A program made the translations under genes and the position numbers. A stretch of 32,000 nt of DNA from an uncultured bacterium (lineage in GTDB: Bacteria; Auribacterota; JACPWU01), in the NCBI GenBank assembly GCA_964640155.1, contig CAZXEQ010000009.1, positions 1 to 32,000 on the forward strand. Reading direction: 5' to 3'. The stretch's first letter is position 1; every line of letters starts with the position of its first letter. Below the pieces are notes generated by a model, which saw only the letters and a list, made by a program, of their open reading frames with translations, had not been told where the DNA came from and made no database searches. Shown here one piece after another: positions 2,738 to 30,953 of the stretch.

Positions 2738-3210
2738 TATTCTCTTAGTAATGCTACTTTCCCAGTTCTTGCTACTTCTTGTATTCCAAAAGATTTCATA
2801 AAATCAAAGAAACCATGAATTTTAGATTCATCACCTGTAATTTCAATGGTCATTGATTCATGTGCTACATCTATAATTTTAGCTCTAAAAATATCTACAA
2901 TTTGCATGATTTCAGAGCGTGTTTTGGCATTGGCTCCCACTTTCATCAAAACAAGCTCTCGCTCAACCTTTTCTTTCCCCTTCATATCAATAACTTTAAT
3001 CACTTCAATGAGCTTGTTAAGCTGTTTCACCACTTGTTCCAAAACCAAATCATCCCCTTGAACCACAATGGTCATTCTTGAAACAGTGGGATCTTGTGTT
3101 TCACCAACTGCAAGACTATCAATATTAAAACCTCGCCCACTAAAAAGACCCGAAATACGCGCTAAAACCCCAAACTTGTTCTCTACCAACACCGAAATGG
3201 TATGTTTCAT
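2737..3210 (-). CDS. ilvN: acetolactate synthase small (regulatory) subunit
   Basis: 157 aa. The ACT-domain opening HTISVLVENKFGVLARISGLFSGRGFNIDSL is typical of AHAS small subunits. TAAGGAGAAAAC lies upstream of ATG 3210. No large-subunit gene is adjacent. Confidence 0.9.
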   Translation of the reverse strand: MKHTISVLVENKFGVLARISGLFSGRGFNIDSLAVGETQDPTVSRMTIVVQGDDLVLEQVVKQLNKLIEVIKVIDMKGKEKVERELVLMKVGANAKTRSEIMQIVDIFRAKIIDVAHESMTIEITGDESKIHGFFDFMKSFGIQEVARTGKVALLRE

Positions 3211-3266
3211 GTTTTCTCCTTAGCCAAATAAGTAAAACATTATGTCAAAAAAGGGCTATTTTGTCT

Positions 3267-3529
3267 TGAGAAATGTGTATAAAATCGGGTGACCAACGAA
3301 TCCTAATGATGAGCGATCGCACTCGAGTGAAAGCAACGAAGGCAAAGACACCCCCTTTTGAAGTTCATCTATTGCTTTATCAAAAAGAAAGTTATATTAA
3401 TTTCCTTTACGGTCGCTGGAATGCGTACGAGGGAAGATCGCAAATCATGATTCGTTGGGCAGGACCCGTTCTTCTCTTTTTAAGTTCGATTGGCTCGCAA
3501 GGACAAACGAACGTGTCTGAACACTCTCA
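3267..3529 (+). repeat. GC-rich structured element, type A copy 1 (core 3287..3467 plus 3' module 3479..3527)
   Basis: The core runs GGGTGA-CCAACGAATC ... GATTCGTTGG-GCAGGACCC. Its lower stem is 10 bp, a 3-nt bulge, 5 bp, a 2x2 loop, then 6 bp, around an AT-rich centre. Outer pairing is TGAGA(aat)GTGT 3267..3278 with ACACTCTCA 3521..3529. A second hairpin is GTTCGATT 3484..3491 / AAACGAAC 3505..3512, followed by the mini-hairpin GTGT-ctga-ACAC. The core matches inverted copy 7011..7189: 1 mismatch in the first 67 nt, 1 in the last 57 nt, and a divergent centre. Confidence 0.85.
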
Positions 3530-3537
3530 TAAATATC

Positions 3538-4269
3538 CTATTCAGATATAGACTTTCTATCTTTTAAGACAGGAATCAATATATATATGCTAATAGGCAA
3601 AATCAAAATGAACGCTAAACGCTTAATTTCCATCGCTGCTTCTTTTCCAAGAACGCAATGAAGACTCCACATACGCATGAGAATAGCAACAATGATCCAC
3701 ATGCAAAAAGAACCATATTCCTTATTGAGCAATCGTTTCCAGGAAAAATTCATGTTCTGAATAGAAGTTTTGAATCCTTTCCAATTCGGCCAAATACGAT
3801 TCACACGTTGGCAATAATCCTCATATTCTGAACCAAATTTTTGTCTTAAAAAATTCTCTTCAGCGGCAATCAGCGAAGCATAAATCAAAAAAAACAATGG
3901 AATACCAATCCAATAGATCAAATGTGCGTTTACAATCAGAGAAAGGCCAACCAAAATAATAAAGTTTCCTAAATACAACGGATTCCTTGAATGAGAAAAA
4001 ACGCCTCCTGTCACCAATCGATCTGCATAAACTTTTTTGTTAACCCCTCCTCGCACAATATAATCATACCCGACTGTTAATGCCCTTAGAATCTGGCCTG
4101 CCATGGCAACAAAAAATCCACCTATCACAAGCCAAACACTTAAATCATATCTTCCACATGGAAAAATCGGTTTTGAAAAAAGCAGGAGTCCAAGAAAAAT
4201 CACGGGAAAAAGAAAATCTCGATAGTAGAAGAAAAAATTGCCCAATCGAATCAAAATTTTAGATTTCAT
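3538..4269 (-). CDS. ICMT/PEMT-family integral membrane methyltransferase
   Basis: 243 aa and multi-pass hydrophobic. LVTGGVFSHSRNPLYLGNF and EENFLRQKFGSEYEDYCQRV match the isoprenylcysteine carboxyl / phospholipid methyltransferase signature. Its ATG overlaps the cmoA stop in an ATGA arrangement (4266..4269). Confidence 0.8.
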   Translation of the reverse strand: MKSKILIRLGNFFFYYRDFLFPVIFLGLLLFSKPIFPCGRYDLSVWLVIGGFFVAMAGQILRALTVGYDYIVRGGVNKKVYADRLVTGGVFSHSRNPLYLGNFIILVGLSLIVNAHLIYWIGIPLFFLIYASLIAAEENFLRQKFGSEYEDYCQRVNRIWPNWKGFKTSIQNMNFSWKRLLNKEYGSFCMWIIVAILMRMWSLHCVLGKEAAMEIKRLAFILILPISIYILIPVLKDRKSISE

Positions 4270-7010: not shown

Positions 7011-7189
7011 GGGTCCTGCCCAACGAATCATGATTTGCGATCTTCTCTCGTACGCATTCCAGCGACCATAAAGAAATTGATTTAACTTTCGGTTTGCTAA
7101 AGTAAGAGATGAGCTTTGAAGAGGGTGTCTTTACCTTCGTTGCTTTCACTCGAGTGCGATCGCTCATCATTAGGATTCGTTGGTCACCC
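7011..7189 (-). repeat. GC-rich structured element, type A copy 2 (core only, inverted relative to copy 1)
   Basis: The reverse complement begins GGGTGACCAACGAATCC and ends GATTCGTTGGGCAGGACCC. Both flanks are near-identical to 3287..3467. The 55-nt centre is divergent and 2 nt shorter. Confidence 0.85.
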
Positions 7190-7240: not shown

Positions 7241-7379
7241 ATCGTTCAATAAAGCGTGAAGACCATTGGAAATCGAGTGAGCATGGCATCCCGATATTCA
7301 TCGGGATGAACGAGATTTCCTTTGAGTTCGTTTACCTCGCAGGGGGAAACGAACGTGTCTGAACACTCTGTTGAACGAT
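7241..7379 (+). repeat. structured element type D (different body, same 3' module as A1)
   Basis: Closing stem ATCGTTCAA 7241..7249 / TTGAACGAT 7371..7379. Hairpin 1 is GGAAATC 7268..7274 / GATTTCC 7314..7320, enclosing CATCCCGA 7287..7294 / TCGGGATG 7301..7308. Hairpin 2 is GTTCGTTT 7326..7333 / AAACGAAC 7347..7354. Segment 7321..7369 matches 3479..3527 at 42 of 49 positions, and the last 23 are identical. Confidence 0.75.
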
Positions 7380-8958: not shown

Positions 8959-11000
<2,042 letters not shown>

Positions 11001-11001
11001 T

Positions 11002-11030
11002 GAATTATTCACACAATGTGTGAATAATTC
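11002..11030. repeat. 29-bp perfect palindrome overlapping the stop codon of the upstream membrane-protein gene
   Basis: GAATTATTCACACA-A-TGTGTGAATAATTC. Same length and same GAAT..ATTC ends as 10860..10888; centres are 142 nt apart. No U-tract follows on the minus strand. Confidence 0.9.
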
Positions 11031-23368: not shown

Positions 23369-23494
23369 AAAAGTGTGTTCTTATTAGCTAAGAAACGGGT
23401 CCTGCCACTCGTCAGCCCCACCGTGCTCACTAAAAGTTGCGCGCGGCGGGGCTCCCCGTCGAGTGTCACCCGTATTTGTAAAGGACACACTTTT
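23369..23494 (-). repeat. GC-rich structured element, type B copy 1 (core 23397..23471)
   Basis: Core reverse complement: GGGTGA-CACTCG-ACGGGGAGCCCCGCCGCGCGCAACTTTTAGTGAGCACGGTGGGGCTGA-CGAGTG-GCAGGACCC. Outer helix is AAAAGTGTGT / ACACACTTTT (23485..23494 with 23369..23378). Confidence 0.85.
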
Positions 23495-23534: not shown

Positions 23535-23695
23535 TGAAAATGGGGTGACCCGACTGGGGGTTCCCCATCGAGCGCCAGCAAGCGTCGCCTAAAACCTGAG
23601 AATCCTCATTAAATGCCCTGCCGACGCTGACCCCACAGGGGCTATAACTACATGTGCCGTCGATGGGGGTGAGGAGGGGCAGGACCCCATTTTCA
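23535..23695 (+). repeat. GC-rich structured element, type C (core 23542..23688)
   Basis: TGAAAATGGGGT-GA-CCC ... GGG-G-CAGG-ACCCCATTTTCA, with a 12-bp closing helix. Internal helices are CCCCATCGA/TCGATGGGG and AGCGTCG/CGACGCT around an AT-rich loop. Confidence 0.8.
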
Positions 23696-28712: not shown

Positions 28713-28836
28713 AAGAGTGTGTTTTTTATATATGTGGGTGACACTCGACGGGGAGCCCCGCCGCGCGCAACTTTTAGTGAGCACGGTCGGGCTGACGAGT
28801 GGCAGGACCTACTACTTTTCAAAAAAACACACTCTT
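28713..28836 (+). repeat. GC-rich structured element, type B copy 2 (core 28736..28810)
   Basis: The 75-nt core differs from the B1 core at 2 positions. Outer helix is AAGAGTGTGTTTTTT 28713..28727 / AAAAAACACACTCTT 28822..28836, 15 bp and perfect. The linkers have similar length to B1 (13 nt; 16 vs 18 nt) but divergent sequence. Confidence 0.88.
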
Positions 28837-28988: not shown

Positions 28989-30953
28989 ATGATCGCATTT
29001 CACAACGAAATTCTTAAGAACTACGAACGTGCTTCTCGACGTGAGTGGCTTGTCACCAACGGTCTGGGCGGTTATGCTTCCTCTACTCTTTGTGGAGGAA
29101 ACACACGTCGCTATCATGGGTTACTGGTCTCAAGCATGCATCCCCCACTTGGACGCACGGTTATCCTTTCTAAAGTTGATGAAACACTTCATATCGATGG
29201 GCAATCTTACGATTTAGGATGCAATCGTTTTCCTGGAACAGTTCATCCTAAAGGAAATCAATATTTAGATCTTTTTTCTTTTGAGTTTTATCCAAAATTT
29301 ATTTATTCGGCAGGAGGCGTTAAACTAGAAAAAAATGTTTATATGATTTTTGAAAAAAATGCGACCATCATTTTTTATCGGCTCTTGGAAAGCCCCAAGC
29401 CCGTTAAACTAAGTCTCATAAGTTTTATTGCATGTCGGAGATTTCATGAACTCACACGCGAAAATACATTTTTTAATGAAGATATTGAAATCAGTGATGG
29501 GCTTTTACGCTTAAAACCTTATAAAAACGCACCCATGATTCACCTTTTTTTCAGCCCTGCACAATACGGTGAAAACCCCATGTGGTATCTCAATTTTGAA
29601 TATACTGAAGAAAAGCGACGTGGGTTAGATTATCGCGAAGATCTTTTTACTCCCGGTGATTTAACCTTTGATCTTGTCCCGGGAGGGACTTGCTTTCTGA
29701 TTGCTTCTACGGATGAGCTCTCCTCTTCCGATCTTCTGCAAGCCGAATTTAAAGAAACAGAACGCAAAAAACTGGTCCTCAAAAATTGTAAAAAAGAAGA
29801 TAAACTTTCATTGTCCTTATTTTTAGCAGCAGATCATTTTCTTGTTCAACGAGGAGAAAAAGGATCTGCATCTATTATTGCAGGTTATCATTGGTTCAGT
29901 GATTGGGGCCGAGATACAATGATTAGTCTTCCAGGCCTAACACTCGCCACAGGCCGATATAATTTAGCTAAAAGCGTTTTAACCACTTTTTCGAAATATG
30001 CTTCTGAAGGCATGCTTCCCAATCGTTTCCCAGATGAAGGTGAACAGCCTGATTACAATACAGTCGACGCCACACTTTGGTTTTTTAATGCTGTTTATCA
30101 ATATTTCCTTTACACCAATGATGACACTTTTATTCGAAACACACTTTTCCCCGTCCTCAAAGAAATGATCGAATGGCATGAACGAGGCACGCGTTATAAC
30201 ATTCATGTGGATGGGGATGGTCTTCTTTATGCAGGAGAAGAGGGAACACAATTGACATGGATGGATGCTAAAATTGGCAACGAAGTTATTACTCCCCGTA
30301 TAGGGAAACCTGTTGAAGTTAATGCCTTATGGTATAACGCTTTAAAAATTATGGAATTTTTTGCAGAACGTTTTCGTCAATTTCCAACACGTGATCGTTA
30401 CGGCGCCATGGCCGAAGCAGCTTCTAAAAGTTTTAATGAAATATTCTGGAACAAAGAAATGGGTTGCCTCTATGATTGCATCAATGGAGAAAATTTAGAT
30501 GCATCGATTCGTCCAAATCAAATTTTTGCCTTGAGTCTGCCCTTCCCTGTTTTAAAATCAGACCGCTTTCGTTCTGTCATGAAAATCATCGAAAAAGAAT
30601 TACTCACTCCTTATGGCCTTCGTAGCCTTTCACCTCTAGATCCAAAATATATTGGCAAATATGCGGGAAATGCTTTAGAAAGAGATCGTGCTTATCATCA
30701 GGGAACCGTTTGGCCTTGGTTATTAGGTCCTTTCACAACCGCTTATTTTAAAACCTATGGACGAACTCCTAAAACGATTGAAAAAGCCAAATCTTTTGTC
30801 GAAGCTTTTAGAGATCACATTTATGAAGCAGGATTAGGAACCATCTCTGAATTGTTTGATGGAGATCCTCCCCATGAACCCAATGGTACTATTTCACATG
30901 CTTGGAATGTGGCAGAGATTTTAAGAATTGTGGTTGAGGAATTGGATAAGTAA
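28989..30953 (+). CDS. glycogen debranching enzyme (GDE N-terminal domain plus amylo-alpha-1,6-glucosidase)
   Basis: REWLVTNGLGGYASST..GNTRRYHGLL at the N-terminus, and GYHWFSDWGRDTMISLPGL and HQGTVWPW in the catalytic (alpha/alpha)6 domain. ATG 28989 is preferred because the track start at 28875 adds 38 low-complexity residues. Confidence 0.85.
   Translation: MIAFHNEILKNYERASRREWLVTNGLGGYASSTLCGGNTRRYHGLLVSSMHPPLGRTVILSKVDETLHIDGQSYDLGCNRFPGTVHPKGNQYLDLFSFEFYPKFIYSAGGVKLEKNVYMIFEKNATIIFYRLLESPKPVKLSLISFIACRRFHELTRENTFFNEDIEISDGLLRLKPYKNAPMIHLFFSPAQYGENPMWYLNFEYTEEKRRGLDYREDLFTPGDLTFDLVPGGTCFLIASTDELSSSDLLQAEFKETERKKLVLKNCKKEDKLSLSLFLAADHFLVQRGEKGSASIIAGYHWFSDWGRDTMISLPGLTLATGRYNLAKSVLTTFSKYASEGMLPNRFPDEGEQPDYNTVDATLWFFNAVYQYFLYTNDDTFIRNTLFPVLKEMIEWHERGTRYNIHVDGDGLLYAGEEGTQLTWMDAKIGNEVITPRIGKPVEVNALWYNALKIMEFFAERFRQFPTRDRYGAMAEAASKSFNEIFWNKEMGCLYDCINGENLDASIRPNQIFALSLPFPVLKSDRFRSVMKIIEKELLTPYGLRSLSPLDPKYIGKYAGNALERDRAYHQGTVWPWLLGPFTTAYFKTYGRTPKTIEKAKSFVEAFRDHIYEAGLGTISELFDGDPPHEPNGTISHAWNVAEILRIVVEELDK

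Follow-up and report, generated by a model that had tools for sequence, protein, structure and literature searches.

Two hairpins in the 32,000-nucleotide stretch of DNA analysed here (the window), B1 and B2, share a core that is almost constant inside flanks that are not, raising the question of what holds the core: a function at these two loci or a property of the hairpin itself. The two form an inverted pair (124 nt, 85% complementary). A preliminary description had read them as two old paralogues whose linkers drift in place while selection keeps their structure, and had proposed the GGGUGA strand as the functional one. Its comparison of the two copies stands. Same-sense alignment of GGGTGAC...GGCAGGACC(C/T) yields the two differences in 75 core positions that it had counted. 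One, a G->C change at 28787 that it did not mention, breaks a C-G pair of helix P3; the other, the terminal C->T at 28810, gives a G.U pair on the GGGUGA strand, as it had claimed. The linkers have the lengths described (13 nt on the 5′ side; 18 nt in B1 and 16 nt in B2 on the 3′ side) and have diverged in sequence. The outer helix changes in a compensated way, AAAAGTGTGT/ACACACTTTT against AAGAGTGTGT/ACACACTCTT with A-T becoming G-C at one pair, and the two pairs adjoining the GGGT/ACCC helix covary (ac/gt against gt/ac). Both strands of B1 and B2 fold far better than shuffled sequences (z −5.1 to −6.6).

The ends of the B core recur elsewhere in the window. GGGTGAC occurs exactly five times and GGCAGGACC(C/T) exactly five times, with about one of each expected, and every occurrence is one of the two ends of a long hairpin (Table 1). 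The interiors of the A (164 nt), B (59 nt) and C (128 nt) elements are unrelated or only partly related to one another, so the closing module GGGUGAC...GGCAGGACC(C/U) is their common feature. In C, P1 is extended to 12 bp, and homologues of this element occur in a short form (locus L078) and a long form (L147) among the collected loci. The five copies lie in mixed orientations, and B1 and B2 each sit between divergent gene starts. The open reading frame of the debranching enzyme beside B2 (start 28875) is about 38 codons longer than all 654-residue homologues; its true start is probably near 28989, which would place B2 about 150 nt, not 39 nt, upstream of the gene. Elsewhere in the window, a separate 49-nt direct repeat (3479-3527 and 7321-7369, 86% identical) has small hairpins of its own (GUUCGUUU...AAACGAAC and GUGUCUGAACAC); one copy lies 11 nt past A1 and the other stops 2 nt short of the queG reading frame. 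The region upstream of thiC (8959-10827, minus strand; upstream region 10828-11028) has no TPP riboswitch match at the Rfam gathering score.

Table 1. Hairpin elements of the window and the parts of B2.
Feature	Position	Strand	Description
A1 element	3287..3467	+	Common closing module; 9-bp P2 (CAACGAAUC/GAUUCGUUG); unrelated 164-nt interior
A2 element	7011..7189	-	Inverted copy of A1; arms 94-95% identical, centre diverged
B1 whole unit	23369..23494	-	Outer helix, linkers, core
B1 core	23397..23471	-	GGGUGAC...GGCAGGACCC; covariance model 66 bits, E 3.6e-13
C element	23535..23695 (23543-23687 from end to end of the closing module)	+	GGGTGAC at 23543, GGCAGGACC at 23678-23686; common closing module
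B2 whole unit	28713..28836	+	P0 28713-28722/28827-28836 (extendable to 15 bp), AT-rich linkers, core
B2 core	28736..28810	+	Covariance model 54.9 bits, E 1.2e-10
B2 P1	28736-28739 with 28807-28810	+	GGGU with ACCU
B2 module	28740-28742 facing 28801-28803	+	G5 A6 C7 facing G G C; AGG 28804-28806 bulged
B2 P2	28742-28747/28796-28801	+	
B2 G-run junction	28748-28755	+	
B2 P3	28756-28763/28784-28791	+	C.C mismatch due to G->C at 28787
B2 distal hairpin	28764-28783	+	

The hairpin is not peculiar to this organism. Scanning one genome per species with a B-like pattern returned 20 matches in metagenome-assembled genomes (MAGs), from Auribacterota, Gottesmanbacteria, Uhrbacteria, Vicinamibacteria, other Acidobacteriota, Acidimicrobiia, Omnitrophota and Gammaproteobacteria, and a pattern scan of metagenomes returned at least 120 loci. 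A looser regular expression applied to the window and at least 140 loci gave at least 164 elements (157 distinct among the matches listed), of which at least 159 lie beyond the window's five, spread over genomes and metagenomes from phyla far apart. Both B1 and B2 were recovered by a covariance model that was trained on other organisms alone (scores in Table 1). These searches establish a multicopy hairpin family in at least eight phyla, most of them uncultivated. The invariant module was found in CPR bacteria, Acidobacteriota, Actinomycetota, Omnitrophota, Auribacterota and Gammaproteobacteria; its invariance is partly imposed, since the patterns required the module and GGGGNNCCCC for all family members except six. 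Contigs often carry several copies, at densities of up to one per few kilobases, and clusters and tandem copies occur. At L040 (2719-2889) a 102-nt tandem duplication contains the element twice, at L085 (around 2450-2520) a partial extra 3′ end (GCAGGACCCGTCCAGAG) comes after a full copy, and at L140 (12082-12125) a C-type copy has lost the whole P3 hairpin, leaving the closing module and the junctions. At L006 (1832-1911 and 2005-2188) and L017 (1416-1491 and 1565-1753), copies are found no more than about 100 nt from a 6S RNA gene and a c-di-AMP riboswitch, which is probably coincidental placement in non-coding spacers. ARAGORN gave no sign of a tRNA or tmRNA. An origin in phages or plasmids was rejected: viral contigs (IMG/VR) gave only two chance matches without the structure, and plasmids (PLSDB) gave none. 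Literature searches by sequence words and descriptors returned no description of the family, which is not proof of absence.

We compared the window with related genomes. One close relative is the MAG Candidatus Auribacterota SZ_szas25bin.51, which shares 97% identity with the window in both the desaturase and the debranching enzyme. Its ubiD-desaturase spacer has conserved flanks and lacks both B1 and C; it holds an unrelated 125-nt GC-rich insert (L143 4346-4470) that forms a perfect 18-bp hairpin (z −7.8), and structured inserts seem to favour this site. The spoIIE-like/GDE spacer is without B2 in this MAG and in an 85% relative. The empty sites are not clean, the spacers being rearranged and one of them carrying a different GC-rich hairpin. 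B-type copies do occur elsewhere in SZ_szas25bin.51 (L001, L017), and their linkers resemble both linkers of B2 and the 5′ linker of B1. The family is thus polymorphic between close relatives. The absence of B1 and B2 from the orthologous spacers of a 97% relative points to recent insertions from different source copies, and the linker matches indicate that the linkers differ because their sources did, not through decay in place. One part of the preliminary reading, selection on structure and the choice of the GGGUGA strand, holds; the other, two old paralogues with linkers free to drift where they stand, does not, and neither does the local functional RNA gene or UTR element that it implied. 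The constraint would lie on a family of mobile elements rather than on two loci. We therefore favour, at somewhat better than even odds, a reading in which a non-autonomous mobile hairpin element, under selection for the fold of one of its strands, has recently inserted at both places to give B1 and B2. In line with this, a Logan short-read contig of the window organism that carries ubiD (L020) ends inside B1, near window position 23400; the hairpin repeat breaks short-read assemblies.

Alignment of the family defines what is constant. The element is a GC-rich hairpin of 65-180 nt whose constant part is its base: a 4-bp GGGU/ACCC helix with about five covarying pairs, then a fixed asymmetric module of G-C, A.G and C-G pairs with a bulged AGG. 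Beyond this, P2 covaries and leads through a bulged G-run into a C-run/G-run helix, and the distal part is free cargo. In one Gottesmanbacteria MAG, two copies (L002 6170-6245 and L011 6628-6703) have their distal hairpins in reverse-complemented form on an unchanged base. Across 106 members from other organisms, 89.8% of the cells in P1, its extension and P2 are paired, compared with 67.9% in shuffles and 36-44% when the partners are slid, and 357 cells carry double changes (0/500 shuffles); among the matches listed, P2 has 78 different pentamers. The same covariance model, run on the loci, added five copies with GGGUGGC...GACAGGACCC, and in five of these five non-pattern matches A6/G2′ is swapped to G6/A2′. 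This swap fixes the register of the module, in which G5-C3′, A6.G2′ and C7-G1′ pair and AGG is a 3-nt bulge, and on this ground a K-turn register was rejected. Three further candidates fell: a hammerhead reading of CUGACGA in B, because the heptamer is not conserved across the family; an HDV-like fold, because the core holds no complement to GGGUGAC; and cyanobacterial HIP1, which occurs inside A elements only.

Within the B clade (n=5: B1, B2 and three copies from the Auribacterota MAG), 97.1% of the cells pair and 5 of 21 pairs carry compensatory double changes (0/500 shuffles), as expected under the structural selection that had been proposed. The preliminary description had suggested setting paired against unpaired substitutions, and here the outcome is divided: variable columns are equally common in the two classes (14/42 paired, 9/39 unpaired), and the paired ones are compensated. 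Its weak inference from the single G.U of B2 proved right. Counting G.U against A.C symmetrically over all non-Watson-Crick positions, we found ratios on the GGGUGA strand of 51:10 in P2 and 19:7 next to P1 among the matches listed, and of 30:9 and 14:7 after identical helices were collapsed. The sense strand is also predicted to be the more stable one in 125 of the 157 distinct copies listed with RNA parameters and in 152 with DNA parameters. The G.U excess together with this greater stability identifies GGGUGA as the folding strand and demonstrates that the structure is kept on one strand only.

A fold of this kind could belong to a functional RNA whose production and use drive its spread, with DNA copies following: a small ribozyme, a retro-mobile template, or an RNA that binds a protein or serves as a scaffold, as omega RNAs do for RNA-guided nucleases and transposases. 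We regard this explanation as unlikely but serious. Strand-specific wobble and isosteric A.G/G.A covariation are typical of RNA, and ribozyme and riboswitch families, too, combine invariant loop nucleotides with stems that covary freely and a distal domain that may be missing. MITE-like elements are normally lineage specific; an invariant 16-nt module over eight phyla is unusual for them, and a conserved RNA-binding partner would fit equally well. In CPR-like contigs many copies stand directly before a Shine-Dalgarno sequence and ATG, and a gene follows four of the five window copies in the sense direction. The wider placement speaks against this reading: placement upstream of a gene in the sense direction accounts for 13 of 55 intergenic copies in low-GC loci and convergence with a gene for 23, so that no 5′-UTR-like preference emerges. 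The same counts, with the absence of the elements from orthologous loci, led us to reject a riboswitch or 5′-UTR leader, a candidate prompted by the four window copies. Rfam 15 gave no match at gathering score in the window or on the elements of 19 loci, and nothing but noise up to E<=10. Scans of B1 and B2, themselves of little information, predicted no sigma-70-like promoter or terminator, and no transposase, recombinase, reverse transcriptase or nuclease recurs among the neighbours (2-22 kb around each copy). Of the copies inside genes, half run antisense to the mRNA and yet keep the fold and the bias, with G.U against A.C at 15:1. Orientation, moreover, tracks GC skew rather than genes. 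The sense strand lies on the C-rich strand of the 8-kb flanks in 80 of 124 copies among the matches listed (53 of 80 with related loci clustered, p ~0.005), and the trend runs the same way for sense in-gene, antisense in-gene and intergenic copies; the bias is moderate (66-80%).

The same placement bears on a second explanation, in which the hairpin is a repeat domesticated by its hosts in the manner of REP/BIME sequences and kept by host-level selection as a stabiliser of mRNA 3′ ends, a terminator or a gyrase/IHF-like binding site. Intergenic copies are indeed somewhat commoner at gene 3′ ends (25 3′-UTR-like and 23 convergent, against 13 and 16 facing gene starts), and the outer helix of the B type is bordered by A and T runs like a bidirectional terminator. 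Yet the genes on either side of B1 and of B2 start divergently, a setting that calls for no terminator, and the terminator scan was negative, for what little such a scan can tell. One-third of the copies are within coding sequence, the elements are missing at orthologous sites of close relatives, and the REP tags GTAG and CGTC are absent. We judge this explanation improbable. More generally, the element is not a regulator of its neighbours: across the family the flanking genes are mutually unrelated housekeeping genes, and both orientations occur.

About one-third of all copies lie in long open reading frames, with the frame open through the element, 27 in sense and 26 in antisense among the matches listed; the family thus enters genes in either orientation and the frame is kept open. 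Hosts confirmed by Pfam include LeuRS, ArgRS, TyrRS, TsaD, BipA, PriA, DinB, DnaX, AddA/UvrD and ComEC, as well as a P-type ATPase, glycosyltransferases, RluB and the flexible linkers of E2 acyltransferases, one E2 gene holding one sense and one antisense copy. Two BipA orthologues that are 89% identical represent a filled and an empty site and differ by a 69-nt (23-codon) insertion, made up of a 66-nt core and about 3 nt; a similar comparison of a carbamoyltransferase did not delimit the insertion at L010. At one site in RluB (L034, L073) a 71-nt and a 69-nt version have completely different yet complementary P2 strands. That a small intron or bypass element is removed from the mRNA, or skipped in it, would account for copies in essential genes and at the same site in orthologues such as these, and the ends G|GUGA...CAG|G superficially resemble GU-AG. 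However, every in-gene copy is open and in frame, including the 26 antisense ones, for which the same RNA signals would be unusable; the BipA insertion is a whole number of codons; and the copies sit in insertion-tolerant linkers and loops, such as those of E2 and DnaX. We give this idea very little credence. Plain recent duplication within the genome with chance compensation, for which only the two differences in 75 core positions speak, is refuted by hundreds of homologues that other phyla carry, alike in fold but different in their helices, by linkers that differ strongly where the cores do not, and by the match of an independent covariance model to B1 and B2.

How might a mobile hairpin of this kind spread? 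The G.U bias on the element's own strand, the stability of the sense strand and the bias towards the C-rich strand suggest a single-stranded stage tied to replication. The element may be copied or moved as a folded single strand, most likely as single-stranded DNA at the replication fork, with an RNA intermediate possible. A putative structure-specific enzyme encoded elsewhere in the genome would recognise the folded strand through its bulged bases, much as IS200/IS605 TnpA, RAYTs and integron integrases recognise hairpins with extrahelical bases. The high identity of the B cores would then reflect selection for what stays mobilisable rather than a function for the neighbouring genes. We argue this mechanism by analogy because the insertions show no target-site duplication at the BipA junction (itself ambiguous by a few nucleotides), no conserved terminal inverted repeats, the outermost pairs varying between copies of one genome, and no conserved target motif or flank, the best position being 46% A. 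The same variation of the outermost pairs and the same BipA junction led us to reject a classical MITE. Against a mobile reading stands the sign of the orientation bias, which is opposite to that of IS200/IS605, whose active strand is on the lagging-strand template, that is, the G-rich strand. At L015, three copies lie within 2.3 kb (330-2559) directly upstream of a tyrosine integrase gene (2742-4121); an association with integrases was rejected, as it does not recur at other loci.

More tentatively, and with less confidence than we have in mobility as such, the family may be an undescribed minimal mobile element that crosses phyla: a self-closing hairpin of about 70 nt that carries only its own recognition structure, is moved by a putative widespread structure-specific enzyme or by an RNA activity of its own, and colonises essential genes in frame. 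If so, uncultivated bacteria would repeatedly gain new linker and loop peptides from it. As a rule, small palindromic repeats are regarded as curiosities of single lineages, and this family spans at least eight phyla with one module. Should a single enzyme family read that module, the enzyme would be new as a structure-specific tool for DNA or RNA and would fill a gap in what is known of mobile elements in CPR and PVC-related bacteria. For annotation the consequences are immediate. In-gene copies add 23-30 residues to aminoacyl-tRNA synthetases, helicases and E2 linkers, affecting MAG annotation and protein alignments; the textbook covariation of the hairpin can mislead riboswitch searches; and in this window neither B1 nor B2 should be given a regulatory annotation for ubiD or the debranching-enzyme gene.

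Several known systems share features with the family, and it lacks the traits by which MITEs, PATEs, REPs, attC sites and K-turns are defined. A K-turn likewise has a 3-nt bulge beside a G.A-type mismatch between two helices. Here, unlike in a K-turn, there is no tandem sheared G.A/A.G step, Watson-Crick pairs flank the bulge, the single A.G pair swaps to G.A, and in the K-turn register the position where A is expected is G. The IS200/IS605 elements, which move as ssDNA by 'peel and paste', and the ORF-less PATEs derived from them resemble the family in lacking terminal inverted repeats and target duplications, in their strand-specific hairpins and in a replication-linked orientation. They carry a pair of separate subterminal hairpins, and a fixed tetra- or pentanucleotide marks the spot 3′ of which they insert, whereas here a single hairpin closes both ends, no flank is conserved and the orientation bias is opposite in sign; no Y1 transposase was seen among the neighbours (2-22 kb around each copy).

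Closer parallels lie in two systems that work on folded strands. REP/REPIN sequences are also multicopy hairpins with long persistence and compensatory stem change, maintained by a single-copy enzyme (the RAYT, a Y1 HUH protein) that acts on folded single strands. In contrast to these extragenic 20-40-nt palindromes, the hairpins described here are 65-180 nt long, lack the GTAG/CGTC tag and the doublet of inverted REPs, have conserved asymmetric loops and are often intragenic (53 copies among the matches listed); no RAYT was seen among their neighbours (2-22 kb around each copy). Integron attC sites, too, have two paired boxes, an unpaired or bulged region whose extrahelical bases set the strand choice, and a terminal structure that varies widely, also in length, with structure conserved and sequence not. 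They differ in that the present ends are GGGTGAC/GGCAGGACC rather than RYYYAAC/GTTRRRY boxes, and in that the copies form no single-orientation arrays behind cassettes and have no IntI nearby.

In behaviour, the nearest analogues are the Rickettsia palindromic elements (RPE) and the Coxiella QMITEs (PMC5896051). Both RPE and QMITEs are short multicopy palindromes that occur between genes and in frame within genes, are read through and have no transposase of their own. The likeness to RPE is one of behaviour only: in-frame in-gene copies occur in the present family, whose translation would follow from the open frames. RPEs are confined to one genus. The hairpin family, unlike them, is GC-rich, keeps one invariant module across phyla and has strand-specific bulges and a wobble bias. 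It is thus closest to the Rickettsia palindromic elements in behaviour and to REPIN/RAYT and attC in logic. Selfish palindromic repeats as a kind were already known; an invariant module kept across phyla, a strand-specific fold and colonisation of genes on this scale were not.
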